From: an uncultured Kiritimatiellota bacterium
GTDB lineage: Bacteria > Verrucomicrobiota > Kiritimatiellia > RFP12 > DVOR01
Assembly (NCBI GenBank): GCA_944389585.1
Contig: CALXMW010000001.1
Coordinates: 7,748-71,747 of the forward strand
Reading direction: 5' to 3'
Length of the DNA: 64,000 nt
This document shows, piece after piece, positions 11,831 to 60,500 of this stretch (positions are counted from its first letter, which is position 1; the number at the start of each line of letters is the position of its first letter). The position numbers and the translations under genes are program-made. The notes beneath the pieces are model-generated. The model saw only the letters and a list, made by a program, of their open reading frames with translations. It was not told where the DNA came from and searched no databases.

Positions 11831-11846
11831 GGAATGTGCTAAACTG
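11831..11846 (+). promoter_or_regulatory. candidate promoter of accD (GGAATGTGCTAAACTG, extended -10)
   Basis: Recurring motif about 36 nt upstream of ATG 11882; RBS aaaggag in between. Confidence 0.45.
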
Positions 11847-26717: not shown

Positions 26718-29444
26718 TCAGTGGGCGGAGAGCCAGTCGGGGCCGGCGCCGAGGGAGACGGAGAGGGGGACGGGGAGGGCGACGACGCCTTCCATGGCGG
26801 CCTGGACGAGGGGTTTGACGACCTCGAGCTCGTCGTCGGGGACGTCGAAGAGAAGTTCGTCGTGGATTTGGAGGGTCATCTGGGCGCGGAGTCCGCGGGC
26901 GCGGAGCTCGCGGTCGATGCGGACCATGGCGAACTTGATGATGTCGGCGGCGGAGCCTTGGATGGGCATGTTGATGGCGACGCGCTCGGCGGCGTTGCGG
27001 GTGGTGGCGTTGCGGGAGTTGATCTCGGGGACGGCGCGGCGGCGGCCGAAGAGGGTTTGGGCGTAGCCGCGGGCGCGGGCCTCGGCGACGGAGCGCTCCA
27101 TGTAGGCGCGGACGGCGGGGTATTGGGCGAAGTAGGCGTCGATGAGGGCCTGGGCCTCCTTGCGCGGGACGCGGAGGCGCGAGGCGAGGCCAAAGGCGGA
27201 GATGCCGTAGATGATGCCGAAGTTGACCATCTTGCAGCGGCCGCGTTGGGCGGGGGTGACCTCGGCGAGGGGGACGCCGTAGACGACGGAGGCCGTCTGC
27301 GCGTGGATGTCCTCGCCGGCGCGGAAGGCGGCGATCATGCGCGCGTCGCCGCTCATGGCGGCCATGAGGCGGAGCTCCACCTGGGAGTAGTCGGCGGAGA
27401 GGAGCGTCCAGCCGGGGCCGCGGGCGACGAAGGCGGCGCGGATGCGCTGGCCGCGGTCGGAGCGCACGGGGATGTTCTGGAGGTTGGGGTCAGAGGAGGA
27501 GAGGCGCCCGGTGTCGGTGAAGGTCTGGTTGAAGGTGGTGTGGATGCGGCCGTCGTCGGCGTCGATGTGCTCGGGCAGACGGTCGACGTAGGTGTTCTTG
27601 AGCTTGACGCAGGCACGCCAGTCAAGGATGAGGTCGACGACGGGGTGGCGCTCGCGGAGTTTGAGGAGGAGTTCCTCGTTGGTGGGGAACTGTCCGCGGG
27701 CGGTGCGCTTGACGCCGGGGTCGAGGTTCAGCCGGCCGAAGAGGAACTCGCCGACCTGCTTGGGCGAGGCGAGGTTGACGCCCGCGCCGGTGTACTCGCG
27801 GATGGCCAGCTCGAGCTTGACGACCTCGCCCTCCAGCTCGTGGCGGAAGCGGCGCAGGGCCGGCACGTCGAGCCGCACGCCCACCCGCTCCATGCGCAGA
27901 AGCACGCCCGCGAGCGGCTCCTCACAGTCGGCCAACAGGTGCGCCAGGCCCATCTCCTCGACCTTCGGCATGAGGGCCTGATGGAGGCGGAAGGCCACGT
28001 CCGCGTCCTCGGCGGCATAGTCGAGGATCTCCTCGGGCGCGAGGTCGGCCATCGTGCGGCCCTTCTCCTTGCCGAGCAGGTCGGCGATCGGGATGGGCGC
28101 GTAGCCAAGGAAGACGTTGGCCACGTGATCCAGGTCATGGCGGTCGGTCGCGTCGATGAGATAATGCTCCAAAAGCGTGTCGTGGAGCGGCCCGCGCAGC
28201 TCGATGCCCAGGCGGGCGAGGACGGCGCGGTCGAAGCGCAGGTGGTGGCCCAACTTGGCGATGGACTCGTCGTGGAAGACCGGCAGGAAGGGCGCGAGCG
28301 CGGCGAGCTGCCCCGCGTCGTCCTCCGGCAACGGCACATACCACGCGCGGCCGCCGGCGACGGCGAAGGAGCACCCCACGGCGCGGTCATGGCGCGGCCG
28401 CAGGCCGACGGTCTCCGTGTCGAAGGCGATGAGCGGGGCCTTGCGGAGCTCGGCGGCGAGCGCCTCGCGCGCCTCCGCCGTCGCCGCCAGGCGATACTCA
28501 TGCGGCACGTCCGCCAAACGCTTCAGCGCCGGCGCCGGCACGGCCGCGCCCTCGGCGAAGGCAAGCTGCGTCTGCTCTGGCGCGGCGGGAATGCCCAGGC
28601 GGGCCGCCACCTGGCGGAGCTCATACTTCGCCAGCACCGGCGCGAGCGCGGCAAGGTCGGGCGGGCCCAGGCGCAACGCCTCGAGCGTCTCGGCGACGGG
28701 CGCGTCGCGCACGATGGTGACAAGCCGCTTGCTCAGGCGCGCGTCGTCGAGATGGGCGCGGATGGCCTCGCCGGCCTTGCCGGGGATCTCGCCGGCGCGC
28801 TCAAGGAGGCCCTCGAGCGTGCCGAACTCGCGCAGGAGCTTGACGGCCGTCTTGGGGCCGACGCCCGGCACGCCGGGGATGTTGTCGCTGGCGTCGCCCG
28901 CGAGGGCCAGGTAATCGATCATCCGCGCGGGCTCGGCCAGGCCCCACTGCGCGCAGATGTCCTCGGCCGACAGGGGGGCCTCGTCGCCGGGGTGGAGGAT
29001 GGAGACCGAGGGCCCGGCCAGCTGGCCCAGATCCTTGTCCGGCGTGGCGATGACGACCTTCAACCCCTGCGCCACGCCGCGCTCGGCCAACGTCCCAAGC
29101 ACGTCGTCGGCCTCGAAGCCCTCGGCGCGGACGGTTCGGATGCCCCAGGCCCGGGCCAACTCCTCGGCCTGGCCGATGGACGCGGCGATGTCCTCGGGCA
29201 TCTTCTCGCGCTGGGCCTTGTAAGGCGGATAAAGCGTGTGGCGGAAGGTGGGGCCCTCGCTCTCAAGCGCGATGGCCAGGTGCGTGGGCCGATGGACGCG
29301 CAAAATCTGCTCGAGCGTCGCGGCAAAGAGCGAGACGGACGAGGTGACGATGCCCGAGGCCGTCCGCCGCGGCCGTTTCAGGAAAACGAAGTGCCCCCGG
29401 TAAAGAATCGGCATCAAGTCGACCAGGAAGAGCGTCTCGCCCAT
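26718..29444 (-). CDS. polA: DNA polymerase I
   Basis: ~908 aa from MGETLFLVD; 5'-3' exonuclease, 3'-5' exonuclease-like and polymerase domains (motif A DYSQIELR, motif B, QIHDEL). Confidence 0.95.
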   Translation of the reverse strand: MGETLFLVDLMPILYRGHFVFLKRPRRTASGIVTSSVSLFAATLEQILRVHRPTHLAIALESEGPTFRHTLYPPYKAQREKMPEDIAASIGQAEELARAWGIRTVRAEGFEADDVLGTLAERGVAQGLKVVIATPDKDLGQLAGPSVSILHPGDEAPLSAEDICAQWGLAEPARMIDYLALAGDASDNIPGVPGVGPKTAVKLLREFGTLEGLLERAGEIPGKAGEAIRAHLDDARLSKRLVTIVRDAPVAETLEALRLGPPDLAALAPVLAKYELRQVAARLGIPAAPEQTQLAFAEGAAVPAPALKRLADVPHEYRLAATAEAREALAAELRKAPLIAFDTETVGLRPRHDRAVGCSFAVAGGRAWYVPLPEDDAGQLAALAPFLPVFHDESIAKLGHHLRFDRAVLARLGIELRGPLHDTLLEHYLIDATDRHDLDHVANVFLGYAPIPIADLLGKEKGRTMADLAPEEILDYAAEDADVAFRLHQALMPKVEEMGLAHLLADCEEPLAGVLLRMERVGVRLDVPALRRFRHELEGEVVKLELAIREYTGAGVNLASPKQVGEFLFGRLNLDPGVKRTARGQFPTNEELLLKLRERHPVVDLILDWRACVKLKNTYVDRLPEHIDADDGRIHTTFNQTFTDTGRLSSSDPNLQNIPVRSDRGQRIRAAFVARGPGWTLLSADYSQVELRLMAAMSGDARMIAAFRAGEDIHAQTASVVYGVPLAEVTPAQRGRCKMVNFGIIYGISAFGLASRLRVPRKEAQALIDAYFAQYPAVRAYMERSVAEARARGYAQTLFGRRRAVPEINSRNATTRNAAERVAINMPIQGSAADIIKFAMVRIDRELRARGLRAQMTLQIHDELLFDVPDDELEVVKPLVQAAMEGVVALPVPLSVSLGAGPDWLSAH

Positions 29445-29839
29445 CACACGCGCCCCCCTTCCGGCGCGGCGCGCCACCGCCGGGCCAACTCCCCGAGCGG
29501 CCGCCCGAGCGCCTCCTCGCCGGCCTGCCCCAACCGCCGCCCAAGCGCGCCCAGAAAGCGCGTCAGCTCGCTGTCGTCATAGATGCAATGCTCGGGGTAA
29601 AGCACCAGGTACACCTCCATCGGCGTGGCCTCCGGCGGCAAGTTCCGCGCCGACCCGCGGCGGAGGGCGAAGGCCGTCTCGAAGGCCCCCAGGAAATCCG
29701 CGTCCGCCTCGCCCCACGCAGGGTTCGGCGCGGGATAGGCCCGGCGGAAGCGCCGCGCCTGCGCCCCCCGGTTCCATCGCCAAATCAGCGCCGTCACCAC
29801 GGCCAAGGCCACCACGTAAAACACGATCCGCACGCTCAT
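29444..29839 (-). CDS. hypothetical membrane-anchored protein
   Basis: 131 aa; N-terminal TM (IVFYVVALAVVTALIW); codirectional and contiguous with polA. Confidence 0.5.
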   Translation of the reverse strand: MSVRIVFYVVALAVVTALIWRWNRGAQARRFRRAYPAPNPAWGEADADFLGAFETAFALRRGSARNLPPEATPMEVYLVLYPEHCIYDDSELTRFLGALGRRLGQAGEEALGRPLGELARRWRAAPEGGRV

Positions 29840-30420
29840 CCGCGCCTCCTTTTCACCCGATAGGCCGGCCGCCGCGCGCGCCGAAAGCGCCGCACGCAGG
29901 GCCGCGGCCTCACGCCGAAGGCCAACAGCTCGGCCACCCGCCGCTGGATCCCCGGCAACGCCTCGGCGTCCAACGCAGGCTCCGCGACCGAAATCAACTC
30001 GCCAGTCCCCCGCAGCTCATAGAGATGGACGCGCCGCCCCGCCGCGTCGCGCGCGACCTGCCGCTCGGCCAGCCGCTTCCCGCGCTCCAACAGCAGGGCC
30101 AGCACATACGCCGCCGCGCCGTCGCGCGGGTCGGCCCGCCCAACAAGCGCCCGCAACGCCTCCTCGGGCGAGACCTTATGCGCCTCCTCGGGCGCCCGCC
30201 GCGGCACGGCCTGGGGCACCGTGAAGGCCCACGCGGCCGAGGCCAAGGCCCGCTCCCGCGCGCCGAGCGCGGCGAAACAGGCGGCGCACAGGTCGCGCCG
30301 CTCATGGCCCTCGCCGTCCGCCGCGGGCATCAGCAACGAATGGCCGCCGCATCCGGGCGCGAAGGGCGCGCCGCACGCGGCACACCGTTGGGCACGGGGT
30401 TTGAGCCGCCAATCCGCCAT
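29836..30420 (-). CDS. hypothetical protein with N-terminal CxxC...CxxC zinc-ribbon-like motif
   Basis: 194 aa; CAACGAPF...CAACF; 4-nt overlap with the downstream gene. Confidence 0.5.
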   Translation of the reverse strand: MADWRLKPRAQRCAACGAPFAPGCGGHSLLMPAADGEGHERRDLCAACFAALGARERALASAAWAFTVPQAVPRRAPEEAHKVSPEEALRALVGRADPRDGAAAYVLALLLERGKRLAERQVARDAAGRRVHLYELRGTGELISVAEPALDAEALPGIQRRVAELLAFGVRPRPCVRRFRRARRPAYRVKRRRG

Positions 30421-30421
30421 C

Positions 30422-33400
30422 TCAATCCCCCAAAAAGTCCTTGAGGGCCTTGAGGCCGCCCTCGATGGCCTGGCGCTTGGCCTTGTCCTCGGGGTCGCCC
30501 TTCCCCTTCGCGTCCATCTTCTCGAGGCGCTCCTGCAGCTTGTCGGCGATGAAGTCCGAGGCGCCCTCCAACGCCGCCCGCCGCGCGGGGCCGGCGAAGG
30601 CCTCGGTCAGCGCGCCCACCTCGACGAGCGGGCGGTCGACGGTACCGACGATGGGCAGGCGCACGGCCGCGTCCGCCCCCAGCCTGTCCCCGAGCAAGCC
30701 CGCGAGGGGGACGGTGAGCGTGTAGTCGAGCCGCCGCGTGGGGAGGTCGGTCCGCCCCTCGCACCGCACGGTCACGGGGCCGATGTCCATCACGATGGGG
30801 TCGCCGTCGAGCACGCCGCCGTCGAGGCGGAGCGCCACCGCCTGGTCGGGCATGGCGGCGACCTTTCCGGAACGCCCCGCCGCCGTCAGCACCGAGCGCA
30901 CCACGGCGTTCGGGGCGAGCGCGAGGCCGTGGGTGCAGAGCGTCATCTCCGCCTCGGCCTCGACGAGTGCCTCGGGGCCGTCGAGCGGCACGCGCAGGGC
31001 GTCGCACCGCAGATCGATCGCCCCCGAGGGCGTGGCCGCGCCCTTGAGCAGGGGACTGACGAGGCCGAGCCCCGCGTCGAGCAACGCCTGCGTCACGCCG
31101 ACGCCCCGGAGCAGGTAGGCGCCTTCGGGCATCGTGAGGACGTAGGGCGGCGCGGCCACGCAGAGGCGCGGGGCAAGGCCCAGCGTGCCGCCGTTCACGG
31201 CGACCTCGGCGTCAAGCGCGAGCGTCGCCCCGCCCAGCGTCACCGTGGCCTCGCCGCCCGGGATGTCCAGCCCCGGGAGCGTCACGCGGCCGAAGGCCAC
31301 CTCGGCCTTGGCCCGGCCCTCGTTGAGGAGGCCCGCCGGCCCGAGCGTCACGGGGCCCTCGAAGGAGAAGGGGCGCGTCTCCCGCCCGGAGACGGAGATG
31401 CCCCGCTCCCGCGCCGCGTCGAAGCAGGGCAGCGCCCAGATGGCGTCGAAATCCGGCCTCAGCTCGCCCGCGAGCGTCGCGACGCCCGTGCCCGGCGCGA
31501 GGCTTCCGGAGGCGGTGAGCTTCGCATACGGCGTTTTGGCGACGAGCCGCTCCACCGCGAACCGCTCCCCCCGCCCGATGGCCCGCACGCCGGCCTCGAA
31601 GGGCACGTCGATGGACGCGAGGCCCGGGAAGGCCACCTTGAACGTCGGCGCGTCAAGGTCGAGCGACAGGCGCGGGGTGGAGGCGCCCGTCACCGGCATG
31701 ACCTCGAAGACGAAGTCGACCGGCCCCTCCACCCCCGGCAACGCCGCGCGCTTCCCGGACGCGAGCCACCGCCCCAGCGCGTAGGCGGGGTCTGCCCGGC
31801 CCTTGAACGCCGCGGAGACAAGGCGGCCGGGCGGCAGGCCCGGCGCGTAGCCGCCCTGGCCCTGGAGGGTGAGCACGGGCGTCTCGAGCGTCACGCCGCG
31901 CAGGCGCAGGGCCACACCGTCGAACGTCGCGGCGAAGGCCAGCTCCGCCAGCGGCCTTTCCTTCTCGACGATTTGGTAGGCGGGGGCGGCGAGCGAGACG
32001 TCCCGCACGGCGGCCTTGACCTGCGCGGAAAGCAACGTGGGCGCGCCGCTTGCCGTCGCCTCCAGCGTCGCCGTGCCGGCTTCGACCCGCGGCGCCTCAA
32101 GCCCCAGCCACGCGGCCGCGGCGGCCAGGTCGGCCTTCGCCCCAAGCTTCAGGCTCCCCACGCGGCGCGCGGCCACGTCGATGTCCGCGGCCTCGAGCGT
32201 GGCGTCCGCGAGGGCTTCCTGCCCGGAGGCGAGCGCCGCCGTGGCCGAGACCGCGCCCTTCTGGGCCTGCGCGCCCACGTTGAGGACGAGCGGCCCGGGC
32301 AGAGAGACCTCGCCGAGGAAGGGGCGCAGGGTCTCCAAGAGCGGCACGCTTTCCACGCGGGCCGCGAGGCGCCCGGCCTCCAACCCGCCCTGGCCGGAGA
32401 CCAGCGCGCCGGGGAAATCCACCGAAAGCCTCTCGATTTGGAAGTCCAGCCAATTCTCGGGGTCGACCTCCGCCTCCACCGCCACTTTAGGGTTCGCCTC
32501 CAGCCGTTTCCCGTCGAAGACCACGGCCAGGCCGCGGGTGGAGAAGTCCGCCGCGCCGCGCAACAGGCCCGAGGGGCCGTTGCCGAGCGTCGCGCGGAGC
32601 GTGGCCGCGCCGGAGGGGATTGCCACGCCCGAGGCCGCCACGCCGAGCGCTTGGGCGAAGGCCAAGGCCTTGGGGCAATCCGCCGACGCCTCGAGGGCGA
32701 CCTCGGGCCAAGGGCGGCCCGCCGCGCCGGCGGCGTCGAGGGCAAGGCGCAACCAGGGGGAATCGGCCTTGAGGGAGACCGCGCGCAGGAAGTCCGCCGG
32801 GCGTTTCGCGGCGAGGAGCGCCCGCGCGGAGGGGGTCGTCGCCGTGGCCTCGAAGGCCAGATCCAGCACCTTGCCGACGAGGGCAAGGGCGATGTCCTGG
32901 TCGAGCGCGGGCAGGGTCAGCTCCGCGTCCACGCCCGCCGCCAAAGGCGCGGGCAGGCCCTCCACGGCGAGGCTCGCGTTCCTGACGGCGAGGTGCGCGG
33001 AGAGATCCCAATCCGGCAACGCGAAAGACTTGGGCTTCGCCGCCGGGGCCGGGGCGGCGGGGTCGGCAGGGTACGCCGGGGGGGAGGACGGCGGGGGGGC
33101 GACGCCCGAGACGGGGAGGGGGGCGAGGGGCGGGGGCGGCGCGTAGGCCACGCGCGGCGAGAGGAGCTCGGCCTCCACCGTCACCTTGCCGAAGGGGAGC
33201 AGTTCCCAGAGCGAGGAGAGGCGAACGGCCTCGACCGTCGCCTTGAGCCCCTGGCGCGCGTCTGCGTAGGCCAGGCCCTCGAGGCGTTGCCCCCCGAACC
33301 AGGCGAGCGACCAATCGGCGACCTCGAGCCGCGCCGGGGCGATGGCTTTGTTCACCTGCGCCACCGCCAACGCGCGGACGGGGGCCAGGGAGAGCAACGC

Positions 33401-33526
33401 CGGGGCAAAGGCCACCAACGCCGCCGCGGCGAGGAATATGGCGACAAGGCCAAGCGCCAAGCGCCGCCCCCAGCCGCCCCTCGGCGGGTTCAGCTCCCGT
33501 TCGTTCACCGGCTCCGTGAAGTCCAT
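30422..33526 (-). CDS. AsmA/TamB-like large envelope biogenesis protein
   Basis: 1034 aa; N-terminal TM anchor, very long Ala/Gly/Leu-rich beta-type repeats, charged C-terminal tail. Confidence 0.6.
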   Translation of the reverse strand: MDFTEPVNERELNPPRGGWGRRLALGLVAIFLAAAALVAFAPALLSLAPVRALAVAQVNKAIAPARLEVADWSLAWFGGQRLEGLAYADARQGLKATVEAVRLSSLWELLPFGKVTVEAELLSPRVAYAPPPPLAPLPVSGVAPPPSSPPAYPADPAAPAPAAKPKSFALPDWDLSAHLAVRNASLAVEGLPAPLAAGVDAELTLPALDQDIALALVGKVLDLAFEATATTPSARALLAAKRPADFLRAVSLKADSPWLRLALDAAGAAGRPWPEVALEASADCPKALAFAQALGVAASGVAIPSGAATLRATLGNGPSGLLRGAADFSTRGLAVVFDGKRLEANPKVAVEAEVDPENWLDFQIERLSVDFPGALVSGQGGLEAGRLAARVESVPLLETLRPFLGEVSLPGPLVLNVGAQAQKGAVSATAALASGQEALADATLEAADIDVAARRVGSLKLGAKADLAAAAAWLGLEAPRVEAGTATLEATASGAPTLLSAQVKAAVRDVSLAAPAYQIVEKERPLAELAFAATFDGVALRLRGVTLETPVLTLQGQGGYAPGLPPGRLVSAAFKGRADPAYALGRWLASGKRAALPGVEGPVDFVFEVMPVTGASTPRLSLDLDAPTFKVAFPGLASIDVPFEAGVRAIGRGERFAVERLVAKTPYAKLTASGSLAPGTGVATLAGELRPDFDAIWALPCFDAARERGISVSGRETRPFSFEGPVTLGPAGLLNEGRAKAEVAFGRVTLPGLDIPGGEATVTLGGATLALDAEVAVNGGTLGLAPRLCVAAPPYVLTMPEGAYLLRGVGVTQALLDAGLGLVSPLLKGAATPSGAIDLRCDALRVPLDGPEALVEAEAEMTLCTHGLALAPNAVVRSVLTAAGRSGKVAAMPDQAVALRLDGGVLDGDPIVMDIGPVTVRCEGRTDLPTRRLDYTLTVPLAGLLGDRLGADAAVRLPIVGTVDRPLVEVGALTEAFAGPARRAALEGASDFIADKLQERLEKMDAKGKGDPEDKAKRQAIEGGLKALKDFLGD

Positions 33527-33543: not shown

Positions 33544-33559
33544 ATTGTACCACAATCCC
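33544..33559 (-). promoter_or_regulatory. candidate promoter of the AsmA-like operon (minus strand GGGATTGTGGTACAATG)
   Basis: Recurring motif about 19 nt upstream of ATG 33526; RBS ggaaaggag. Confidence 0.45.
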
Positions 33560-33666: not shown

Positions 33667-33682
33667 GGAATGTGATAAAATG
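33667..33682 (+). promoter_or_regulatory. candidate promoter of the tatD-kinase operon (GGAATGTGATAAAATG)
   Basis: Extended -10 TGaTAAAAT about 27 nt before ATG 33708; RBS aaggagg. Confidence 0.45.
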
Positions 33683-33707
33683 CGGGATGTTTGCAAGGAG
33701 GTTTTGC

Positions 33708-34553
33708 ATGAAACCGATCATTGAGCCGCATATCCACATGATCGCGCGGACGACGGACGATTATATGGCCATGCACAAGAACGGCATCCGCGTATGCGTG
33801 GAGCCTTCGTTCTGGTTGGGCGAGAACCGCCGCTACGCCGGCTCCTTCTTCGACTATTTCCGCCTGTCGCTGGAGTTTGAGCACACGCGCGCGGCGCGCT
33901 ACGGCATCGACCATTGGAGCGCCATCGGCATGAACCCGAAGGAGGCCGAGGATCGGCGCCTGGCCGACGCGGTGATCGACGGGATGGGCGAGTATCTGGA
34001 CCACCCGCGGTGCGTGGCGCTCGGGGAGATCGGCTTCAACAACATCACCCAGAACGAGGAGCACGCCCTGGTGCGCCAGCTGCGCCTGGCCGAGGAACGC
34101 AAGATGCCGGTGGTGCTGCACCTGCCCCACTTCAACAAGCTCAAGGGCATCAAGCGCGTGCTGGAAATCATCAAGGCCGAGGGGCTGACGCGCGAGCGCA
34201 TCGACATCGACCACAACGTGGAGGAGACCATCGGCCTGGCGCTGGAGAGCGGCTGCTACGCCGGCATGACCGTCTACCCCTACTCCAAGCTCTCGCCCGA
34301 GCGCGTGAGCGCGATGATCAAGGAGCACGGCCACACGCGCGTCATCGTCAACGGCTCGGCCGACTGGGGCATCAGCGACCCGCTCTCGCTCGTCAAGGTC
34401 GTGGCGCGCCTGCGCCAGGACGGCTTCGGCGAGCAGGTCATCGAAGACCTCACCCACAACACGCCCATGGCCTTCTATTCCGCCTCGCCCCACTGGAAGC
34501 CGGACTTCGACATCGTGCCGCAGGATCCCGCCACCTACCAGCGCCAGCCCTGA
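33708..34553 (+). CDS. TatD-family metal-dependent hydrolase
   Basis: 281 aa; amidohydrolase TIM-barrel motifs (PHIHM..., HLPHF, DHN). Confidence 0.75.
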   Translation: MKPIIEPHIHMIARTTDDYMAMHKNGIRVCVEPSFWLGENRRYAGSFFDYFRLSLEFEHTRAARYGIDHWSAIGMNPKEAEDRRLADAVIDGMGEYLDHPRCVALGEIGFNNITQNEEHALVRQLRLAEERKMPVVLHLPHFNKLKGIKRVLEIIKAEGLTRERIDIDHNVEETIGLALESGCYAGMTVYPYSKLSPERVSAMIKEHGHTRVIVNGSADWGISDPLSLVKVVARLRQDGFGEQVIEDLTHNTPMAFYSASPHWKPDFDIVPQDPATYQRQP

Positions 34554-34568
34554 CCCGGAGAGCGAACC

Positions 34569-37500
34569 ATGCCCGACGCGACCCCGCAGACCGCCCCCCA
34601 GGCGCCCGAGACGAACTCCGCCGACGAAAAGACCGTGGTGCTCGACCCCAACCGCACCGAGGTCATCCGCCCCGGCGAGGAGCCACCCGCCGCCCAGCCC
34701 AACGCCGGCCCCATGGCCGACTACACCATCTGCGGGAAGGTCGGCGACGGCGGCATGGGCGTGGTCTACCTGGCGCGGGACCGCCGCCTGGGCCGCTACG
34801 TGGCCATCAAACGCCTGAACGAAAAGGCCCTCGCCGACCCCGTGTTGCGCCAGCGCTTCCTCCAGGAAGCCCGCGCCGTCGCCGCCCTCAACCACGCCTA
34901 CATCGTCCACATCTACGCGCTGGGCGAGGACGCCCTGGGGCCCTACATCATCATGGAGTACGTCTCCGGCCCCGCGCAGACCGAGGCCGTCCCCGCCGGC
35001 CAGGACGCCCCCCCGCCCAAAAACCTCACCCTCGAGCAATTCGTCAACCGCAACGGCCCCATGACCGCCGACGAGGCCGTGGCGATGATCCTCAAAATCG
35101 CCCGCACGATGGTCTACGCCCACAGCTGCGGCGTCATCCACCGCGACCTCAAGCCCGCGAACATCCTCCTGGACCCCACCGGCGAACCCAAGCTCGTCGA
35201 CTTCGGCCTGGCGCGCATCGCCCCCCAGGAAGGCCGCACCCAGGTGGCCGAGCTCACCGTCCCCGGCGAAAAGCTCATCAGCCTGGGCTACTCCGCCCCC
35301 GAGCTCGAGCAAGACGCCTCCTCCAGCGACGTGCGCGCCGACATCTACTCGCTCGGCGCCATCCTCTACTTCCTCCTCACCGGACGCAACCCGCGCTACT
35401 ACCGCGAGCAAGACGTGCCCGCCTTCCTGCGCGAGGTCATGCGACGCAGCCTCGAGACCGTCCGCGAACAACGCTACCGCACGGCCCAGGACTTCGTCAA
35501 CGCCCTCTCCGAGGCCGCCAGCCACGGCCGCACCGTCGCCCCCACCATCAAAACCACCTGGCGCTGCAAATGGTGCGACGCCGTCAACCCCATCTCCACC
35601 AAGTTCTGCGCCGAATGCGGCTGGGACGGCAGCGAGCGCTGCCTGGAATGCGGCGCCGAGACCTTCGTGGGCCAGCAATACTGCCCCAGCTGCGGCGCCG
35701 ACTGCCGGATGTACGAGCACGTGGCCTCCATCATCAAGCTCATGGACCAGGCCTGGGACGAACGCCACTTCGAGCGCATCGCCACCATCGCCGGCAGGCT
35801 CCACGGCTTCGACCCCGCCGGCCCCACCGGCCGGAAACTCCTCGCCGACGCCCACGCCCGCGTCGAGGAGGCCGAGCGCAAAGTCGCCCGCCGCAACCGC
35901 CTCGCTGCCCTCATCCCCAACGAACTCAAAGCCGAGAACTACGAGCGCGCCCAAGCCTTCATCGAGGAGTTCCGCACCCTCAACGAAGACGCCATGGTCT
36001 ACGAGGAGGAACTCCGCGACATCCCCGCCAAAATCCTCGCCCGCGACCTCGTGCGCATCCGCCAATGCATCCGCCGCCGCGACTGGCCCACCGCCCGCCG
36101 CCTCACCGCCAACCTCGCCGCGAAATACGGCAACATGCCCGAATACCAAGACGTCCGCGCCCGCGTCGAGGCGCACGGCCGCCGCCTGCGCCGCGCCGCC
36201 TGGGCCTGCGGCGTCGCCGCCGCCGCCGCGCTCTACCTCCTCTCCCTCCCCTGGGCCGCGCGCCTCGCCGGCGGCACCTTCGGCACGGGAGGCAAGACCC
36301 TCTACGCCCCCGCGCGCGCCCTCGCCGCCCTCCCCGGCCTCGGCGCCCTCCTGGACGGCTACGCGCGCCTCTGCGGCGGGCAATCGACGGCCGACTACTT
36401 CCCCGGGCAGGCCCCCGCCGCCGAGGTCGCCCCCGCCCCGCCACCCCGCCCGCCCCTCCCAGACGGCCTGGGAGAGGACCGCGACGCCCTCGACGCCGCC
36501 CTCAGGGAAATCGCCGACCGCCGCACCGCCCAGGACGACGCCCTGCTCATGCAATACTGGCGCAACCTCACCGACCTGCGCGACAGCGCCCAGAAAGCCG
36601 GCGACTACGAGGGCGTCGTCGCCACCACCCACGCCCTCGACGCCTACGCCGAGACCAACGACCTGGGCGCCGTCGCCGACGAAGACCCCGCCACCCTCGC
36701 CGGCATCAAACGCCACATGGCCCGCCGCCGCGAGGAACAGCGCATCCTCTCCGCCCGCCAAGTCCGCGCCGTCGTCCACAAATACCGCGACCACCTCGAG
36801 GCGCGCAGCAAGGAATACACCCAGCGCGGCGAGATGGGCAAGGCCGGCGCCGTCCGCGAGGAGCTCGCGCGCCTCGCCGCCATCCCCGCCGTGCGCGACG
36901 CCCAGCTCCTCCTCAAAGAGACCCGCCCCGACCTCTTCCTCGGCGACGAGGCCTCCATGGCCGAGATTGAGCGCCTCCGCGCCGAGATCCGCGGCGACCG
37001 CGAGGAGCTCCGCAAAAACCTCCGCGCCCTCAATGAAAAGGCCCAGCAGACCCTCGGCGACTGGCCCGCGCAATACGGCGACGCCCTCAACGCCCTCCTC
37101 CGGGACTTCCAACAATCGGGCAACTTCAACGCCCTCGAGGCCGTCGCCATCGAACTCTCCCGCTTCGAGGAGCAGAAGGCCCTGGGCCCCGCCAACGTCG
37201 TGGACTTCCCCGACGGCCTGCGCCAGACCCAGGCCACCTTCCTCCAACGCCTCCAAACCGTCCAAGGCGAGCGCGACACCGCCAAGGCCGCCGTCTTCGC
37301 GGCCTACCTCGCCGACCTGGAAAAACGCCAGACCGAGCTGACCAAGGCCGGCGAATTCGCCGCCGCCGCCGTCGTCAACCAAGAGCTCCGCGACATCCGC
37401 CAAAGCCGCGCCTACCAAAGCGTCGCCCTCCCCCACGCCGCCCCCGCGCAGCAACCCCCGCCGCCGGCCCCCGCCCGGGAACCCCCGCCCGGCGACGAGG

Positions 37501-37595
37501 CCTACGACGAGGCCCTCCTCTCCCACGCCGACGGCCCCGCGGCGACCGCCCCCGCCCCCACCCTGCCGCTCTCCACCGAGGCCCCCCATGACTGA
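34569..37595 (+). CDS. Ser/Thr protein kinase with zinc-ribbon, one TM and a large C-terminal helical domain
   Basis: 1008 aa; VAIK, HRDLKPANILL, DFGLAR, APE motifs; double zinc ribbon WRCKWCD...CAECG...CLECG...CPSCG; TM GVAAAAALYLLSLPWAARLAG. Confidence 0.9.
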   Translation: MPDATPQTAPQAPETNSADEKTVVLDPNRTEVIRPGEEPPAAQPNAGPMADYTICGKVGDGGMGVVYLARDRRLGRYVAIKRLNEKALADPVLRQRFLQEARAVAALNHAYIVHIYALGEDALGPYIIMEYVSGPAQTEAVPAGQDAPPPKNLTLEQFVNRNGPMTADEAVAMILKIARTMVYAHSCGVIHRDLKPANILLDPTGEPKLVDFGLARIAPQEGRTQVAELTVPGEKLISLGYSAPELEQDASSSDVRADIYSLGAILYFLLTGRNPRYYREQDVPAFLREVMRRSLETVREQRYRTAQDFVNALSEAASHGRTVAPTIKTTWRCKWCDAVNPISTKFCAECGWDGSERCLECGAETFVGQQYCPSCGADCRMYEHVASIIKLMDQAWDERHFERIATIAGRLHGFDPAGPTGRKLLADAHARVEEAERKVARRNRLAALIPNELKAENYERAQAFIEEFRTLNEDAMVYEEELRDIPAKILARDLVRIRQCIRRRDWPTARRLTANLAAKYGNMPEYQDVRARVEAHGRRLRRAAWACGVAAAAALYLLSLPWAARLAGGTFGTGGKTLYAPARALAALPGLGALLDGYARLCGGQSTADYFPGQAPAAEVAPAPPPRPPLPDGLGEDRDALDAALREIADRRTAQDDALLMQYWRNLTDLRDSAQKAGDYEGVVATTHALDAYAETNDLGAVADEDPATLAGIKRHMARRREEQRILSARQVRAVVHKYRDHLEARSKEYTQRGEMGKAGAVREELARLAAIPAVRDAQLLLKETRPDLFLGDEASMAEIERLRAEIRGDREELRKNLRALNEKAQQTLGDWPAQYGDALNALLRDFQQSGNFNALEAVAIELSRFEEQKALGPANVVDFPDGLRQTQATFLQRLQTVQGERDTAKAAVFAAYLADLEKRQTELTKAGEFAAAAVVNQELRDIRQSRAYQSVALPHAAPAQQPPPPAPAREPPPGDEAYDEALLSHADGPAATAPAPTLPLSTEAPHD

Positions 37596-38361
37596 CGAAA
37601 CCGCACGCATCCTCGCCATCCGCCCCCTCGCCCAAGGCTACCAAGTCCTCACCCTCGCCGCGCCCGCCGTCGCCGCCGAGGCCAAGCCCGGACAGTTCGT
37701 CCACGTCCGCGTCCCCTCGCTCGACCCCGCGCGCCTGCGCCGCCCCTTCAGCATCTACGACGCCGAGCCCGAGACCGGGCGCCTCCACATCCTCTACAAA
37801 ACCGTCGGACTCGGCACGCGCCACCTCGCCGCGCTCCCCGTGGGCACGGCCCTGCCCGTGCTCGGCCCCATCGGCCGCCCCTTCCCGCTCGACCCTGCGG
37901 GCACGCCCTTCCTCGTCGGCGGCGGCTACGGCGTGGCCCCGCTCTGGTTCCTGGCCTCGCGTCTGCCGCGCAAGGGCGTCCTCTTCGTGGGCGGGCGCAC
38001 CGCCGCAGACATTCTCGAGACCGACCGCTTCGCCAAGGCCGGCTGGGACGTGCGCGTCGCCACGCAAGACGGCTCCCTCGGCACGCCCGGGCTCGTCACC
38101 GCCCCGCTCGACGCCGCCCTCGCCGACAACCCCCAGGCCGAGCTCTACGCCTGCGGGCCCGACGGGATGCTCCGCGCCGTGGGCGAACGCGCCGTCGCCG
38201 CCGGCCTCAAAGGCTGGCTCTCGCTCGACAAGCACATGGTCTGCGGCGTGGGCGCCTGCCTGGCCTGCGTCCAGAAAATCCGCCGCCCGGACGGCACGGA
38301 GACGCTCGCGCGCGTCTGCGTGGACGGCCCCGTCTTCGAAGCCCGGGAAATCGTCTGGTAA
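37588..38361 (+). CDS. PyrK-like FAD/NAD(P)-binding oxidoreductase with C-terminal [2Fe-2S] site
   Basis: 257 aa; ferredoxin-reductase-like fold, cysteine cluster CGVGACLAC...C; 8-nt overlap with kinase gene; no pyrD adjacent. Confidence 0.7.
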   Translation: MTDETARILAIRPLAQGYQVLTLAAPAVAAEAKPGQFVHVRVPSLDPARLRRPFSIYDAEPETGRLHILYKTVGLGTRHLAALPVGTALPVLGPIGRPFPLDPAGTPFLVGGGYGVAPLWFLASRLPRKGVLFVGGRTAADILETDRFAKAGWDVRVATQDGSLGTPGLVTAPLDAALADNPQAELYACGPDGMLRAVGERAVAAGLKGWLSLDKHMVCGVGACLACVQKIRRPDGTETLARVCVDGPVFEAREIVW

Positions 38362-38371
38362 GGAGGGCGCC

Positions 38372-39928
38372 ATGACCGCACGCCTGCCCCTCGCCGCCCT
38401 CGCCCTCTGCCTGGCCCTGCCCCTCGCCGCCGCGCCCGCCGGGGCCGAACGCCTGCGCGGGGACTTCCGCGACGCGATCGCGGCGACCTACCCCGAGACG
38501 CCCGGCCTCGCGCTCTACGACGCCCTCGGCCGCCTCCAGGCCAAGCCCGACTCCGCCGTCGACCTCCAGGCCGTCCGCCAGGCCGTCGGCCAACTGGAAG
38601 ACCCCACCCTCACGCCCTTCTTCGACGCGCTCGTCACCCTCAACGCCGCCGCGGAGGGCGACGGCGCGCTCTTCCGTCGCGGACTGGCCCGCGTCCGGGC
38701 GGAGACCGAATCGACCGCGCTCCTGCGCGCGCTCGACTTCTCCGGCGCCCAGGCCCGCTGCCCCGACTGCCGGGGCGAGCTGCGCTGCGCCACCTGCCGC
38801 GGCACGCTGCGGTGCGCCGACTGCAAAGGCAACGGCTTCACCATCCGCCGCGCCACCGCCACCCAAAGCCTGGGCGGCGGGGACAGGCGCACCCTCGGCG
38901 GGTCGCTCCGCGCCGGGAAGGGCGCCGGGAGCCTGCGCGTGCCCTGCGCCCGTTGCGACGGCTCGGGCAAATGCCCCGCCTGCAAGGGCGCCCCCATCGT
39001 CTGCGCCGCCTGCGACACCACCGGCAAGGTGCCCGACCCCGCGCAGGCCGAGAGCCGCGTGGGCGCACTGGCCGGGCAGATGCGCGAGGCCGTCGCCGCC
39101 GGTCAGGCCGAGGCGATCGAGGCCCGCGAGCAAACCCGTCTGCTCGCCGACGACCTCCGCAAGGCCAGCGCCATCGGCGACCCCGCCGAGGCCCTCGCTT
39201 TCCTCAACGCCCTCCCCGCCGAGCGCGCGAAGGCCGCGCAATGGTCGCAGCTCGGCACCATCCGCCTCGACCTCGAGTCCATCGTCCAAGCGCGCGCGGC
39301 CAATGATTCCGCGAAAATCCGCGCCCGCGAGACGCTCCGCGCCGCCATCCGTTCGGCCCAGGGCAAAAGCGACCCCGTGAAGGGCCTCGCCGCCCTCGCC
39401 GAGGCCATCCAGGCACAGCCCGACTGCGACGCCCTGCCCGAGGCCCAGACCGCCTTCGACGGGCTCCTCGCGACCGCCCGCCGACAGTCCGCGCAACGGC
39501 ACGAAGACCTCGCCAAACGCCTTGAGATGGTCGTCTCGCTCACCGCGCCGCAAGACCGCCTCGCCCAAGCCGAGCGCCTGTTGGCCGACTGGCCCAAGCC
39601 GACGCGCGAGCCGAAGCTTCTGGCCTACGCCAAGGCCAACCGCCTCACCGCCCTGCAAGACCTGCTTGAGGACGACGCGCTCGAAAGGCTCCGGGGCCGC
39701 GTCGAGGCGACGCGCGACCAGGCGTTGGCCGAGCTCCAGACAGCCGAGGAGGAAGGCTCCGCCTGGTGGGTCTGGGTGGCCGCCGGGCTCGGCGCGTTGG
39801 TCGCGCTCTATGCCCTGCTCGCCGCCGTGCAGGCCTTCTTCGCCCGCCGCGCGGAGGCCGAGCGCAAGGCCCGCCAGCGCGCCGCGATGGAGAGCGTGCG
39901 CAAGACCTTCTCGCATCGGAAACGGTGA
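38372..39928 (+). CDS. secreted/C-terminally anchored Cys-rich protein with DnaJ-type CxxC zinc-finger repeats
   Basis: 518 aa; signal peptide; CPDCRGELRCATCRGTLRCADCKGNG and CARCDGSGKCPACKG...CAACDTTG; C-terminal TM. Confidence 0.6.
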   Translation: MTARLPLAALALCLALPLAAAPAGAERLRGDFRDAIAATYPETPGLALYDALGRLQAKPDSAVDLQAVRQAVGQLEDPTLTPFFDALVTLNAAAEGDGALFRRGLARVRAETESTALLRALDFSGAQARCPDCRGELRCATCRGTLRCADCKGNGFTIRRATATQSLGGGDRRTLGGSLRAGKGAGSLRVPCARCDGSGKCPACKGAPIVCAACDTTGKVPDPAQAESRVGALAGQMREAVAAGQAEAIEAREQTRLLADDLRKASAIGDPAEALAFLNALPAERAKAAQWSQLGTIRLDLESIVQARAANDSAKIRARETLRAAIRSAQGKSDPVKGLAALAEAIQAQPDCDALPEAQTAFDGLLATARRQSAQRHEDLAKRLEMVVSLTAPQDRLAQAERLLADWPKPTREPKLLAYAKANRLTALQDLLEDDALERLRGRVEATRDQALAELQTAEEEGSAWWVWVAAGLGALVALYALLAAVQAFFARRAEAERKARQRAAMESVRKTFSHRKR

Positions 39929-40794
39929 TGCGCCGCGCCAAGCAGAACGCTTCCTGGCGGGCGTGGCTGGAGTTGCTGCGCCTGCCCAACCTGTTCACCG
40001 TGCCGGGCGACGTGCTGGCCGGGTGGTGCCTGGCCGGCGCGGGCGGCGGCTGGGGCGCGCTCTTGCCGACCGTGCTGGGTTCGCTCTGCCTCTATGCCGC
40101 GGGGCTCCTCTTCAACGACCTCTTCGACGCGCGGATCGACGCGCGGGAGCGGCCGTCGCGCCCCATCCCCTCGGGGCGGGTCACGCGAGGCGCGGTCTTG
40201 GGCGCGGCGGCGGCGCTCTCCGCGGCGGGGGTGCTGTTGGCGCCGTTGCGCCCGGCGCTGTGGCTTTTGGGGGCGATTGTCTTCTACGACGCGCTCGCCA
40301 AGCGCGTCCCCGGGCTGGGCGTGCTGACGATGGGGTGTTGCCGCGGCCTGAACCTGTTGCTTGGGGCGGCCTGCGCCTGGCCCACCGGGACGGCCGTGGT
40401 GGGGCCGCTCGTGGGCGCGGCCATCGCCTTCTTCGTCCTGTACACGCTGTTGCTCTCGGTGGTGGCGCGGAACGAGGCCTCGCCGGACGGCGAGCCGAGC
40501 GCGTGGCTGCGGTGGTCGCCCGCCCTGCTCATCCTGGCGTTGGCGCCCTTCTTCTGGCTTTTCGGCGTGGGGCCGCTGTGGGGGCCCCCGGCGGCGGCGG
40601 CGTTGCTGGCGCCCGTCCTGCTCATCCGTGGGGACGTGCCGGCGCTCGTGGCCGGGCTCATCCGCCATCTCATCCCGCTCCAGCTCCTGTGGTGCCTGGC
40701 GGCCCTGCCGCCCGGCGGGGGGTGGGTCGTGGGCGGGTTGCTGGCCTGTTGGGGGGCGTCGCTGGCGGCCTCCCGCAGGTTCGCCGGCTCCTGA
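39928..40794 (+). CDS. UbiA-superfamily membrane prenyltransferase
   Basis: 288 aa; Asp-rich motif NDLFDARID; ~8 TM; TGATG overlap with the upstream gene. Confidence 0.8.
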   Translation: MRRAKQNASWRAWLELLRLPNLFTVPGDVLAGWCLAGAGGGWGALLPTVLGSLCLYAAGLLFNDLFDARIDARERPSRPIPSGRVTRGAVLGAAAALSAAGVLLAPLRPALWLLGAIVFYDALAKRVPGLGVLTMGCCRGLNLLLGAACAWPTGTAVVGPLVGAAIAFFVLYTLLLSVVARNEASPDGEPSAWLRWSPALLILALAPFFWLFGVGPLWGPPAAAALLAPVLLIRGDVPALVAGLIRHLIPLQLLWCLAALPPGGGWVVGGLLACWGASLAASRRFAGS

Positions 40795-40815
40795 GAGCCC
40801 TTCCCAAAGGGCCGC

Positions 40816-40830
40816 GACTGTGCTAAACTA
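40816..40830 (+). promoter_or_regulatory. candidate promoter of the 701-aa gene (GACTGTGCTAAACTA) embedded in palindrome GCGACT...AGTCGC
   Basis: Extended -10 TGcTAAACT 20 nt before ATG 40850; flanking inverted repeat looks operator-like. Confidence 0.4.
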
Positions 40831-40849
40831 GTCGCGTAAGGAGCGAAAG

Positions 40850-42955
40850 ATGGCGAAAGCGGCGCAGACATTCGACCAACTCATCAGGAAGATCCGGCGG
40901 GAGGCCCAGCGGCGCGGGAGCGTGCGCGCGGAGAGCGCGGCGGAGCGCCGTGTCTTTGACGTCTACGCGCTGGGCGACGACCTTTTCCTGCTCCAGCGCG
41001 AGGGCGGCGGCTTCGGTCCCGCCAAGGAGCGCCGGCGGTCGTTGGTGATCATTCCCCGGCGCGACCTGCGCATCGGCGCCAAGGGGTGGCTGTGCGCCAC
41101 GGGCACGGGTTATTTCGGCACCATCCTGACGCCGCTCTTCGCCGGCGCGTTCGGTGCCGCGTTCTGCCGCGTGCCGCGGGCGCGGCGTTCCGAGGTGCTG
41201 GCCAAGCGCGTGGTGCTGGCCAACGTCGCGGGCGGCGTGGTGGAGCTGTTCCAGCGCGAGACCGATTTCGGGATCGTCGAGCGCGCCCAACGGTGGCTTC
41301 TGGGGCAGGGGCTTGACCTGGCGCACGTCATCTTCGGCGAGCGCACGCCCGAGGCCCTCGCCTACACCGAGCGCCTGGGGCAGGTCTGGCGCGTCCGCCC
41401 CCGCGTCTACACCCTGCGCGAGATGCGCGAGGCCGTGGCGCGCGCCTGGTTGCGTATCGACACCGCAGCCCATTATTATGTCAGCATCCGTGGCGTCCAT
41501 TGGCTCACCGTCCAGGAGTTCACCCGCCTGGCCGAGCTGGCGCGCCAGGCCCCGGGGCAGCTGCTGGCGTGTCTGCGCGAGTGGGCCGCCATGGCCCCGG
41601 GCGAGAGCCAGAACGCCCTTCGCCGCGCCAAGTGCGGGCGCCTCCACGCCGTCGAGTTCTTCGGTCTGCCGCGCGCCGACGCCGAGACGCTCTTCATCCC
41701 CGCCATGGAGCGCCTACTCGAGGGCGTCACCCTGGGGCGCATGGACGCGGAGGACGTGGCCGACACCTTCGGCGGGCTGGCCATCCTCTACCGCGGCCTG
41801 CTCACCGACCCGGCCTACGCCGACCTGGGCGGCGCCGAGACCATCCGCGCCCTTTACGCCTGCGTCGCCGACGACCTGCGGGGAGGGGGTGATGCGCGCA
41901 CCGACTTCGACGCCCGCCGCGTGGCCCTCCCGGGGGCCTCTTTCTCCCCCGCGCGGGAGAACGTGCCCATCCCCCACGTCGGCGCGGATCGCCCGACGCT
42001 CGAGGTGATCCGCCACCTCATCAGCCGCCTCAGCCTCGACGAGCGCATGGAGCACATCAACGTCTACGAGCTGCGCTCCTCCAAGAACCTGGCCACCGAA
42101 AGCGCCCAGACCCGCGAGATCGTCGTCAAGACAAACCGCCACCCCGTCCCCATCTCCTTCATCCAAAAGCGCCTTGGCTCCGTCCGCGCCGGCTACGCCG
42201 ACTACGTCCTCACCCGCGCCAACGTCTTCCGGGCGCTCGGCGCGGACTACCCCGCCTTCCAGCTTCTGGCCGCCTCGGCGGGCGCGCCGCGCCGCGCCGC
42301 GCCCTTCTTCCTGCGCTCGCGCAGCCCCGGCGACCCCCTCGGGGCCATCCCCCAAAGCCTCTTCCGCAGCAATCCGGACAATCCCGAGAGCCCCGAACTG
42401 CCCGACGTGGTCCTTGCCCTCGCCCGGCTCTACGGCAACGCCGCCGCCCAGAACATGGCCGTCAAGAAGTACATCGCCGGGCCGCCCCCCACCTGCCGCT
42501 TCGGCGCGGGCAAGGAAATCTTCGAGTTCGTCTACGACCCTTTCCTCCACCGCCCCATGCCCGCCCACGTGCAGGTCTGCTCCATCCGCGGCACCCTCGG
42601 CTGGCCCGACCGCGCCCAGGACGAGACCAACCTGGAGGAGTGCCACCGCTTCTACCTGCGCCAGTACGCCGCCGTCCTCGGCGACTACTGGATGCGCCAC
42701 AAGGACGCCTGCACCCTCAACGAGTGCGCCGCCGCCTTCTTCGACGGCTTCGAGCAGAAAATCGAGACCATGCACTGGGCCTATCACCAGAGCCGGCCTT
42801 ACTTCGACGCCTTCGACCCCGGGCTCCGCGCCGCCTACGCCTTCCGCCCCAAGCTTGACTTTGCCCTCTGGGCGCTCGAGCGCGACGCGCACGCCCTCCC
42901 GGCCCTCCGGGAGCGCTTCATGGACTACGTCCGCGACGTCTTCGTCAAAGCCTGA
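40850..42955 (+). CDS. hypothetical protein, 701 aa, no recognisable domain
   Basis: Long ORF with RBS taaggagcg; no P-loop or obvious catalytic motif by eye. Confidence 0.6.
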   Translation: MAKAAQTFDQLIRKIRREAQRRGSVRAESAAERRVFDVYALGDDLFLLQREGGGFGPAKERRRSLVIIPRRDLRIGAKGWLCATGTGYFGTILTPLFAGAFGAAFCRVPRARRSEVLAKRVVLANVAGGVVELFQRETDFGIVERAQRWLLGQGLDLAHVIFGERTPEALAYTERLGQVWRVRPRVYTLREMREAVARAWLRIDTAAHYYVSIRGVHWLTVQEFTRLAELARQAPGQLLACLREWAAMAPGESQNALRRAKCGRLHAVEFFGLPRADAETLFIPAMERLLEGVTLGRMDAEDVADTFGGLAILYRGLLTDPAYADLGGAETIRALYACVADDLRGGGDARTDFDARRVALPGASFSPARENVPIPHVGADRPTLEVIRHLISRLSLDERMEHINVYELRSSKNLATESAQTREIVVKTNRHPVPISFIQKRLGSVRAGYADYVLTRANVFRALGADYPAFQLLAASAGAPRRAAPFFLRSRSPGDPLGAIPQSLFRSNPDNPESPELPDVVLALARLYGNAAAQNMAVKKYIAGPPPTCRFGAGKEIFEFVYDPFLHRPMPAHVQVCSIRGTLGWPDRAQDETNLEECHRFYLRQYAAVLGDYWMRHKDACTLNECAAAFFDGFEQKIETMHWAYHQSRPYFDAFDPGLRAAYAFRPKLDFALWALERDAHALPALRERFMDYVRDVFVKA

Positions 42956-51330: not shown

Positions 51331-51421
51331 ACCGGCGCGGACGCGCGGGAGCCCGGAAGCCCGGAGGCCGGCACCCTTGGCACGACAGAAACAGAGACCC
51401 AAACCGCGGGCCGGCCAGGCC

Positions 51422-51859: not shown

Positions 51860-51863
51860 ACCC

Positions 51864-52678: not shown

Positions 52679-52752
52679 CCGCCCCCAGGCGGCCGCGCGG
52701 AAGCGGGTAAAGTCGGGGCGTTTGTGCTATCCTTGCGGGAAAAGGAGCGACA

Positions 52753-60484: not shown

Positions 60485-60500
60485 CATTATAGCACATCCC
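60485..60500 (-). promoter_or_regulatory. candidate promoter of icd (minus strand GGGATGTGCTATAATG; TGnTATAAT)
   Basis: Textbook extended -10 about 35 nt upstream of icd ATG 60452. Confidence 0.5.

Follow-up and report, generated by a model that had tools for sequence, protein, structure and literature searches.

The genes between positions 33708 and 40794 of a 64,000 nucleotide (nt) stretch of DNA from an uncultured Kiritimatiellota bacterium (contig CALXMW010000001.1; GC content about 70%; the whole stretch is referred to below as the window) probably form a lineage-specific composite operon, eboB-STK-pyrK-(Cys-rich)-eboC, in which STK is a Ser/Thr kinase and the brackets mark an optional gene for a Cys-rich protein. 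Its products would mostly keep their ancestral activities, and the gene that follows, for a protein of 701 amino acids (aa), is in this interpretation unrelated to it. Two older units, viz. eboB-eboC and kinase-pyrK, would have been fused in one gut clade of the Planctomycetes-Verrucomicrobia-Chlamydiae (PVC) group, where the kinase-pyrK pair came to lie between eboB and eboC, and pyrD and eboF, eboD and eboE would no longer be adjacent. The first-pass annotation of this DNA, made from the sequence without database searches, had regarded six plus-strand genes here as a candidate for an undescribed membrane signaling or redox-lipid system. We do not retain this proposal because the cluster maps onto two known modules, the ebo pair and the kinase-pyrK unit, fused in one lineage. 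The genes thus come close to having separate known functions.

The definition of the ebo operon (eboA-F) dates from 2016 (Yurchenko 2016, PMC5133447), and in Nostoc the operon has been implicated in the export of scytonemin precursors (Klicki 2018, PMC6282210). The ebo genes have been tied to thallusin/saccharoquinoline biosynthesis in a 2026 preprint, in which each of eboB, eboC, eboE, and eboF is required for the pathway, L-aspartate and a cyclitol are the precursors of the product, EboC farnesylates hydroxyquinaldic acids, and the ebo genes of Planctomycetota are found scattered around the genome (Kallscheuer et al., 10.64898/2026.05.21.724671). The main text of this preprint makes no mention of a kinase, dihydroorotate, Kiritimatiellae, Lentisphaerae, the gut, or an anaerobe.

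The first gene of the region encodes a TatD protein (Pfam TatD_DNase PF01026, 44 bits), whose best sequence match in the PDB is 3guw (AF_1765) and which over its full length is 57–65% identical to the products of TatD genes located directly 5' of UbiA in PVC ebo clusters. Loci in which such a TatD gene is accompanied by EboF, EboD, and EboE include L039, L063, L079, and L090. In L039, the ebo genes include a type I phosphodiesterase of the EboF type (Phosphodiest), a DHQS-like cyclase (NF004852, 497 bits), and an EboE that exceeds its cutoff (NF035939, 347 bits against 250), and by this gene content the locus is a bona fide ebo cluster. The usual order in other PVC genomes places eboB and eboC next to each other, usually followed by eboF-eboD-eboE.

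The UbiA protein of the window (Pfam UbiA, 51 bits) has approximately 7–8 predicted transmembrane (TM) helices and an NDxxDxxxD motif in which N63, D64, D67, and D71 are invariant. Its best NCBIfam matches are SCO3242_trans (132 bits, cutoff 260) and EboC (116 bits, cutoff 250), both of them below cutoff. The EboC of the complete PVC cluster in L039 obtains similar scores (138 bits for SCO3242 and 129 bits for EboC) and is likewise below cutoff; hence, the cutoff does not discriminate within this phylum, and the low score of the window protein is probably characteristic of the phylum. Models for ubiA, cyoE, and chlG score 5–10 times lower than those for SCO3242 and EboC, and an assignment as plain MenA, UbiA, or CyoE was therefore rejected. 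The first-pass annotation had remarked that the UbiA gene lacks a quinone or heme partner, and no quinone or heme gene is present among the window genes that were scanned; the gene has a described context, that of its homologue eboC in the ebo operon.

The pairing of the two genes recurs outside the gut clade. Of 56 loci from non-gut PVC bacteria and archaea, 24 have UbiA adjoined, with no kinase or PyrK gene in between, by a TatD homologue that is 41–65% identical to that of the window and in most cases lies directly 5' of UbiA; within 10 kb, 17 of these 24 also carry at least one of EboF, EboD, and EboE. Represented among the loci are Planctomycetota, Phycisphaerae, Ca. Jettenia, Opitutia, other Verrucomicrobiota, a marine member of Kiritimatiellia, and Nitrososphaeraceae archaea. 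On the basis of these similarities and arrangements, the TatD and UbiA proteins of the window are homologues of EboB and EboC. The window differs from the known ebo operon in that eboB and eboC are 5.4 kb apart, with the kinase, pyrK, and Cys-rich genes between them, and in that the window lacks eboA, eboD, eboE, and eboF, as do the ±10 kb flanks of the locus in about 25 related genomes; tblastn searches for EboD, EboE, and EboF gave no homologue, either in the 64 kb of the window or in the ±10 kb around any gut-clade locus. Its host also belongs to an anaerobic gut lineage and is not an algal-associated, marine, or soil organism. A separate observation concerns metagenome-assembled genomes of Nitrososphaeraceae/Thermoproteota (L065:6819-12000, also L066, L078, and L084), which carry an ebo-like arrangement of an EboB-like TatD, an IolO-like TIM-barrel epimerase, UbiA, and an EboF-like gene, with an IolM-like (scyllo-inosose dehydrogenase-like) gene upstream; this arrangement is closer to the inositol-linked type of Actinomycetota than to the EboD type.

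The second unit of the composite consists of the kinase and PyrK. The PyrK-like protein matches PF00970 (FAD_binding_6), PF00175 (NAD_binding_1), and PF10418 (DHODB_Fe-S_bind), and the cluster cysteines C219, C224, C227, and C244 as well as the RPFS motif (R51-S55) are invariant in the alignment. It thus resembles the class 1B pyrK-pyrD system in its FAD-binding, NAD-binding, and C-terminal 2Fe-2S domains, its four cysteines, and its RPFS motif, and it differs from that system in having no pyrD in the 64-kb window and a 1008-aa kinase upstream instead of the usual pyr genes. Its score for NF000799 is 181 bits against an equivalog cutoff of 314; PyrKs of sister lineages that adjoin a bona fide pyrD score 168–176 bits (176 in L091, whose pyrD scores 390 bits for NF005574 against a cutoff of 269), so that this shortfall is a property of the lineage. 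A metagenome scan with the PyrK alignment yielded 78 further loci, about 52 of which have a class 1B pyrD directly 3' of the PyrK homologue, and many of the remaining contigs end right after the homologue; the PyrK homologues directly 5' of pyrD are 35–63% identical to the window protein. Because its scores equal those of pyrD-adjacent PyrKs and homologues of it lie directly before pyrD, the window flavoprotein is, as judged from these comparisons, PyrK by descent. The roles of sulfide dehydrogenase, hydrogenase gamma subunit, and AsrB were considered and rejected, since their models score below those of PyrK and the orthologues adjoin pyrD. The earlier remark that the gene has no pyrD partner holds to the extent that none is found in the window or in the gut-clade flanks (±10 kb).

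The kinase (Pkinase, 143 bits, E-value 1.7e-41; DZR, 30 bits) contains the motifs GDGGMG, VAIK, HRDLKPAN, DFG, and SAPE; behind its kinase domain come, in order, a double zinc ribbon, a region of helices, a TM helix at approximately residues 543–564, and an extracytoplasmic helical C-terminus of approximately 440 aa. Like the PknB/Stk1-like transmembrane Hanks-type kinases, it has its catalytic domain, with all canonical motifs, at the N-terminus, and it has only one TM helix and a C-terminal domain outside the cytoplasm. Unlike them, it has no PASTA or other known sensor domain, its TM helix is preceded by the double zinc ribbon together with a long stretch of helices, its C-terminal 440 aa have no family match, and it is conserved as the upstream neighbor of pyrK. 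No similarity was detected between the C-terminus of the kinase and the Cys-rich protein.

In non-gut Kiritimatiellae, the PyrK homologues (59–66% identity) are found in the order kinase-pyrK-pyrD (L091/92, L099-102, L104, L105, and L115) or kinase-pyrK. The kinases of these outgroups align over their full length with that of the window, with 57–62% identity in the N-terminal part and 27–31% in the C-terminal part. By this distribution, the kinase-pyrK adjacency is older than its association with the ebo genes. The contigs themselves (L091:3997-8718 and others) encode a kinase of approximately 980 aa, with Pkinase and double zinc ribbon domains and with the C-terminal region that is also found in the window kinase, followed directly by pyrK and pyrD, and a unit of this kind hints at Ser/Thr-kinase control of pyrimidine synthesis; a sensor kinase as the first gene of a class 1B dihydroorotate dehydrogenase (DHODH-B) unit was not found described in the literature searched. 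The vertical inheritance of the kinase beside pyrK, among housekeeping genes, also bears on the possibility that the locus is a kinase-based anti-phage defence system of the PD-T4-6, MADS, or BREX-PglW type. The kinase does match the PD-T4-6 and mad6 models of PADLOC and the MAD6 and PglW models of NCBIfam, but these matches cover only the generic catalytic domain (approximately residues 50–280) and lie far below the NCBIfam cutoffs, and no other protein of the block has a PADLOC match. This possibility is extremely improbable and it was rejected.

The composite arrangement is conserved among related gut bacteria. One genome per species was scanned with the UbiA alignment and all window proteins were then scored on the loci recovered. 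In all 22 species-level genomes of the gut PVC clade (record titles: Kiritimatiellae, Kiritimatiellaeota, Lentisphaeraceae, and Ca. Spyradenecus), the order is TatD-kinase-PyrK-(Cys-rich)-UbiA, and with L009 and L095/96, about 25 genomes in total carry the block. Locus L011 is 91–98% identical to the window; identities for the individual proteins are summarized in Table 1. The TatD protein is 281 aa long in every gut-clade locus and the intergenic gaps within the block are mostly −8 to +25 nt. The flanks of the block are variable, with 15 upstream contexts among 23 loci and 13 downstream contexts among 20 loci. Of the six genes, five form a conserved block, the Cys-rich gene being optional in it, and the 701-aa gene is not co-conserved with them. 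One variant within the gut clade (L097, 4091–9639, and L098) has eboB-kinase-pyrK followed by a gene for a HAD-type phosphatase in place of the Cys-rich gene and eboC.

A promoter motif marks the 5' end of the block. Alignment across the clade of the 90 nt located 5' of the TatD start revealed an extended −10 pattern, TGTGnTAnAnT, which most gut-clade loci share, despite their differing upstream genes, approximately 25–35 nt 5' of the start of eboB. The window contains 5 exact matches where 0.08 would be expected, and the first four of these (those at 11835, 33544, 33671, and 40819) are located just 5' of called gene starts; the copy at 33544 serves the divergent gene for a 1034-aa protein, that at 33671 the TatD gene, and that at 40819 the 701-aa gene. 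No copy with up to one mismatch occurs between 33682 and 40818, i.e., inside the block. Since the motif precedes both the TatD gene and the 701-aa gene and is absent from the interior of the block, the genes from TatD to UbiA are probably co-transcribed from one extended −10 promoter, and the motif evidence supports the 701-aa gene as a separate transcription unit. A promoter-like site near 33667 and a palindrome-flanked promoter of its own for the 701-aa gene had both been recorded in the first-pass annotation, and both correspond to copies of this motif (Table 1), the former conserved 5' of eboB in most relatives. A generic sigma-70 scan flagged no promoter on the plus strand in this region, the site at 33671 included. 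Copies with one mismatch are also seen 5' of further genes (e.g., 44501, 52723, and 60580); the pattern seems to be this organism's principal promoter signature and might serve to map operons across the genome.

These observations bear on the alternative that the gene order has been kept only by descent and tight packing, with no common transcript and no selective value. The restriction of all block-carrying genomes to one gut PVC clade is in keeping with this alternative. However, the block is still intact where UbiA identity has fallen to 45% and where the flanks fall into at least 13 contexts, its genes overlap or are 2–25 nt apart, and the promoter motif occurs solely at its 5' end, and we consider maintenance by descent alone to be very unlikely.

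If the region is a composite operon of the kind proposed here, its working can be outlined from the two source modules. The ebo pathway uses a cyclitol and aspartate to make a prenylated heterocycle (saccharoquinoline/thallusin); within it, EboB would perform its usual ebo-type step, a metal-dependent hydrolysis or cyclization, and EboC would prenylate a hydroxylated aromatic acceptor at the membrane, the remaining ebo genes being presumably located elsewhere in the genome or lost. PyrK would pass on the electrons of a DHODH-B catalytic subunit whose gene lies elsewhere. An extracytoplasmic signal may be sensed by the kinase by means of its C-terminal helical domain, and the optional Cys-rich, putative zinc-finger protein could be a periplasm-facing accessory. 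The five-gene combination is not described in the literature searched, as the first-pass annotation had suspected, but the TatD/UbiA and kinase-pyrK contexts are individually known or ancestral. Both the fusion, conserved among anaerobic gut bacteria, and the kinase-pyrK-pyrD unit appear to be new relative to that literature.

Several points weigh against a composite whose parts simply continue their former work. Both the UbiA and the PyrK of the window fall under the NCBIfam equivalog cutoffs, and co-transcription is argued from spacing and motifs only. If the genomes have no pyrD, the ordinary job of PyrK would be impossible. The variant loci L097/98 keep eboB with kinase-pyrK though eboC is not adjacent, and this fits a link of eboB to kinase-pyrK at least as well as one to eboC. 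The block has also remained unchanged while its surroundings were rearranged into at least 13 contexts. Its slowest-evolving protein is EboB (83–98% identity), above the housekeeping PyrK (72–96%), with EboC down to 45%, and such constraint (33708-34553 compared with L011-L033) is surprisingly strong for a supposed enzyme of secondary metabolism. Because the block is invariant in rearranged contexts and EboB is conserved above PyrK, these features hint at more than an accidental fusion.

The same features can be read as signs of an integrated new pathway in which EboB, PyrK, and EboC act on one substrate under the control of the kinase, with or without the Cys-rich protein. In such a pathway, EboB would close or open an aspartate-derived ring, like dihydroorotase of the same amidohydrolase superfamily, PyrK would provide electron transfer for the dehydrogenation or aromatization of the ring, replacing steps lost with eboD, eboE, and eboF, and EboC would prenylate the product in the membrane. 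It would agree with the invariance of the block across 13–15 flank contexts, with the conservation of EboB above all other block proteins, with the retention of eboB beside kinase-pyrK in L097/98 where eboC is not adjacent, and with the fact that the genomes in which eboB and eboC joined the pyrK locus are those in which pyrD has been lost from it; eboD, eboE, and eboF are not within ±10 kb in any gut-clade locus, and aspartate has been proven to be a precursor of the ebo product. However, PyrK retains all of its hallmarks, subunits of the PyrK type require a catalytic subunit that contains flavin, for which the block has no gene, and kinase and pyrK were adjacent before they became associated with ebo genes. 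The ebo genes are, moreover, scattered in Planctomycetota, and missing neighbors are therefore no proof of loss. We consider an integrated pathway to be unlikely. Its most specific form, in which the ebo hydrolase and prenyltransferase have been rewired with a pyrD-free PyrK that dehydrogenates an aspartate-derived heterocycle, under transmembrane kinase control, to give an oxygen-independent prenylated product, is decidedly unlikely; if true, it would represent a gut counterpart of an algal morphogen, the link of the ebo genes to thallusin, an algal morphogen active at picomolar levels, dating only from 2026. The eboB and eboC genes of the anaerobic gut clade, with no eboD, eboE, or eboF nearby, offer a natural experiment on the capabilities of a minimal EboB-EboC pair and on the existence of ebo-type metabolites in animal guts. 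If the fusion is only organizational, the outcome is mainly a correction of annotation, viz. TatD to EboB-like, UbiA to EboC-like, and the "orphan" flavoprotein to PyrK.

Of the 22 species-level genomes with the block, 13 contain the Cys-rich gene, which is thus optional. Its product has a predicted signal peptide, CxxC repeats of an apparent DnaJ type in two blocks, and a long helical region followed by a C-terminal anchor formed by a TM helix. At normal thresholds, the protein matches no Pfam or NCBIfam model; the weak profile matches are to DnaJ_CXXCXGXG for the L095 homologue (E 0.12) and to Anti-TRAP (0.3) and GRXCR1-2_C (0.017) for the window protein. A single-sequence AlphaFold2 (AF2) model of the protein is poor (pLDDT 58).

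Adjacency of the 701-aa gene to the UbiA gene is confined to the window and L009-L013; among relatives, only those at 73% identity or more retain it, and because it does not extend beyond these closest relatives the gene was rejected as a member of the block. Its homologues at 39–66% identity are located in unrelated housekeeping contexts, which together with its own promoter motif contradicts its earlier inclusion in the cluster. The protein was said to have no recognizable motif, and searches with Pfam, NCBIfam, and PDB profiles indeed found nothing. The family is small (41 clusters, all of approximately 700 aa and unnamed), and an exhaustive profile search of 1.84 billion representatives recovered only this small family and remote relatives of 610–700 aa, also without Pfam domains. 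A confident AlphaFold2 model based on a 35-sequence alignment (pLDDT 86.9, pTM 0.80) shows in Foldseek a weak agreement in kind with a kinase-like fold (best E-value 1.5e-3), and the model may contain a protein-kinase-like fold. The candidate residues K427, N535, and D563, whose roles are assigned by inference, are conserved. In comparison with atypical kinases (Bud32, RIO, PI3K/PI4K, APH, and WaaP), the protein matches no kinase family at the sequence level, conservation is lacking at the usual position of the catalytic base, and a large N-terminal alpha/beta region has no match. The 701-aa protein is an uncharacterized family of its own, outside of the operon. The shared strand, the close spacing, and the possible kinase-like fold could be taken to mean that all six genes, the 701-aa gene among them, constitute one undescribed membrane signaling/redox-lipid system. 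The adjacency in the window and L009-L013 only, the unrelated neighbors of the homologues (39–66% identity), the separate promoter motif and ribosome-binding site, and the assignment of the other genes to two known modules make such a system highly improbable.

The coordinates of the genes and signals are given in Table 1. All six open reading frames (ORFs) have a GC content at third codon positions (GC3) of 0.92–0.96, and the same six products are present in an independent public gene call (the identical 326-kb metagenome scaffold, ERZ28613587), which together with the ORF coordinates bears out the tight packing reported previously. The gaps between the ORFs are, in order, 15, −8, 10, −1, and 55 nt; the first had been given as 16 nt and the other four were correct. 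The pyrK start overlaps the kinase stop by the 8 nt indicated. Pfam and NCBIfam likewise uphold the first domain assignments of the TatD, kinase, PyrK-like, and UbiA proteins, and the double zinc ribbon and one TM helix ascribed to the kinase agree with the DZR match and the predicted helix. Rfam and tRNA scans found no RNA gene in the six-gene region.

Table 1. Genes and expression signals of the proposed composite operon and its neighbor, with protein identities to the window among gut-clade loci.
Feature	Position	Strand	Description	Identity to window, gut clade
eboB-like gene	33708-34553	+	281 aa; TatD-fold metal-dependent hydrolase	83–98%
Ser/Thr kinase gene	34569-37595	+	1008 aa; Hanks-type	N-terminal part 76–96%; C-terminal part 36–79%
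pyrK	37588-38361	+	257 aa; FAD/[2Fe-2S] electron-transfer subunit, class 1B dihydroorotate dehydrogenase	72–96%
Cys-rich protein gene	38372-39928	+	518 aa; accessory membrane protein	26–80% where present
eboC-like gene	39928-40794	+	288 aa; UbiA-family prenyltransferase	45–91%
701-aa protein gene	40850-42955	+	701 aa; neighbor outside the conserved block	
Extended −10 promoter motif, eboB-to-eboC operon	33671-33681	+	TGTGATAAAAT; TGTGnTAnAnT, exact match	
Extended −10 motif, 701-aa gene	40819-40829	+	TGTGCTAAACT; TGTGnTAnAnT, exact match; within palindrome GCGACT...AGTCGC (40814-40835)	
TGTGnTAnAnT, exact match	11835-11845	+		
TGTGnTAnAnT, exact match	33544-33554	−		
TGTGnTAnAnT, exact match	60486-60496	−		
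Ribosome-binding site, eboB	33695-33701	+	AAGGAGG	
Ribosome-binding site, 701-aa gene	40838-40843	+	AAGGAG	

The six-gene run is flanked on both sides by minus-strand genes, upstream by the gene for the 1034-aa protein and downstream by TatA-like, SmpB, RpoZ, and SecG genes. The 1034-aa protein (30422-33526, minus strand) has no family match and its gene is followed by two small ORFs (29836-30420 and 29444-29839, both on the minus strand), one of which gives faint zinc-finger-like matches; these three genes are conserved only in the closest relatives (L009 and L011).

The scanned remainder of the window encodes housekeeping proteins (viz. PolA, GlgA, GlgB, IspD, YbeY, AccD/AccA, LpxI, LeuA, an FeFe hydrogenase, HrpB, and others). 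The product of 19257-20702 (minus strand) resembles the large subunit of FeFe hydrogenases and has several 4Fe-4S domains; this fits an anaerobic, fermentative lifestyle of the host and therefore bears on any oxygen-dependent step proposed for ebo products. Two segments of 1.4–1.5 kb (24403-25940 and 51330-52753) contain no convincing ORF by GC3 and have no Rfam match at gathering thresholds. A further segment of approximately 2.8 kb (5300-8100) has a GC skew of −0.34 to −0.36 and no clean codon-position signal, and it contains long overlapping ORFs in several frames with low-complexity sequence rich in Gly, Ala, Glu, and Pro.

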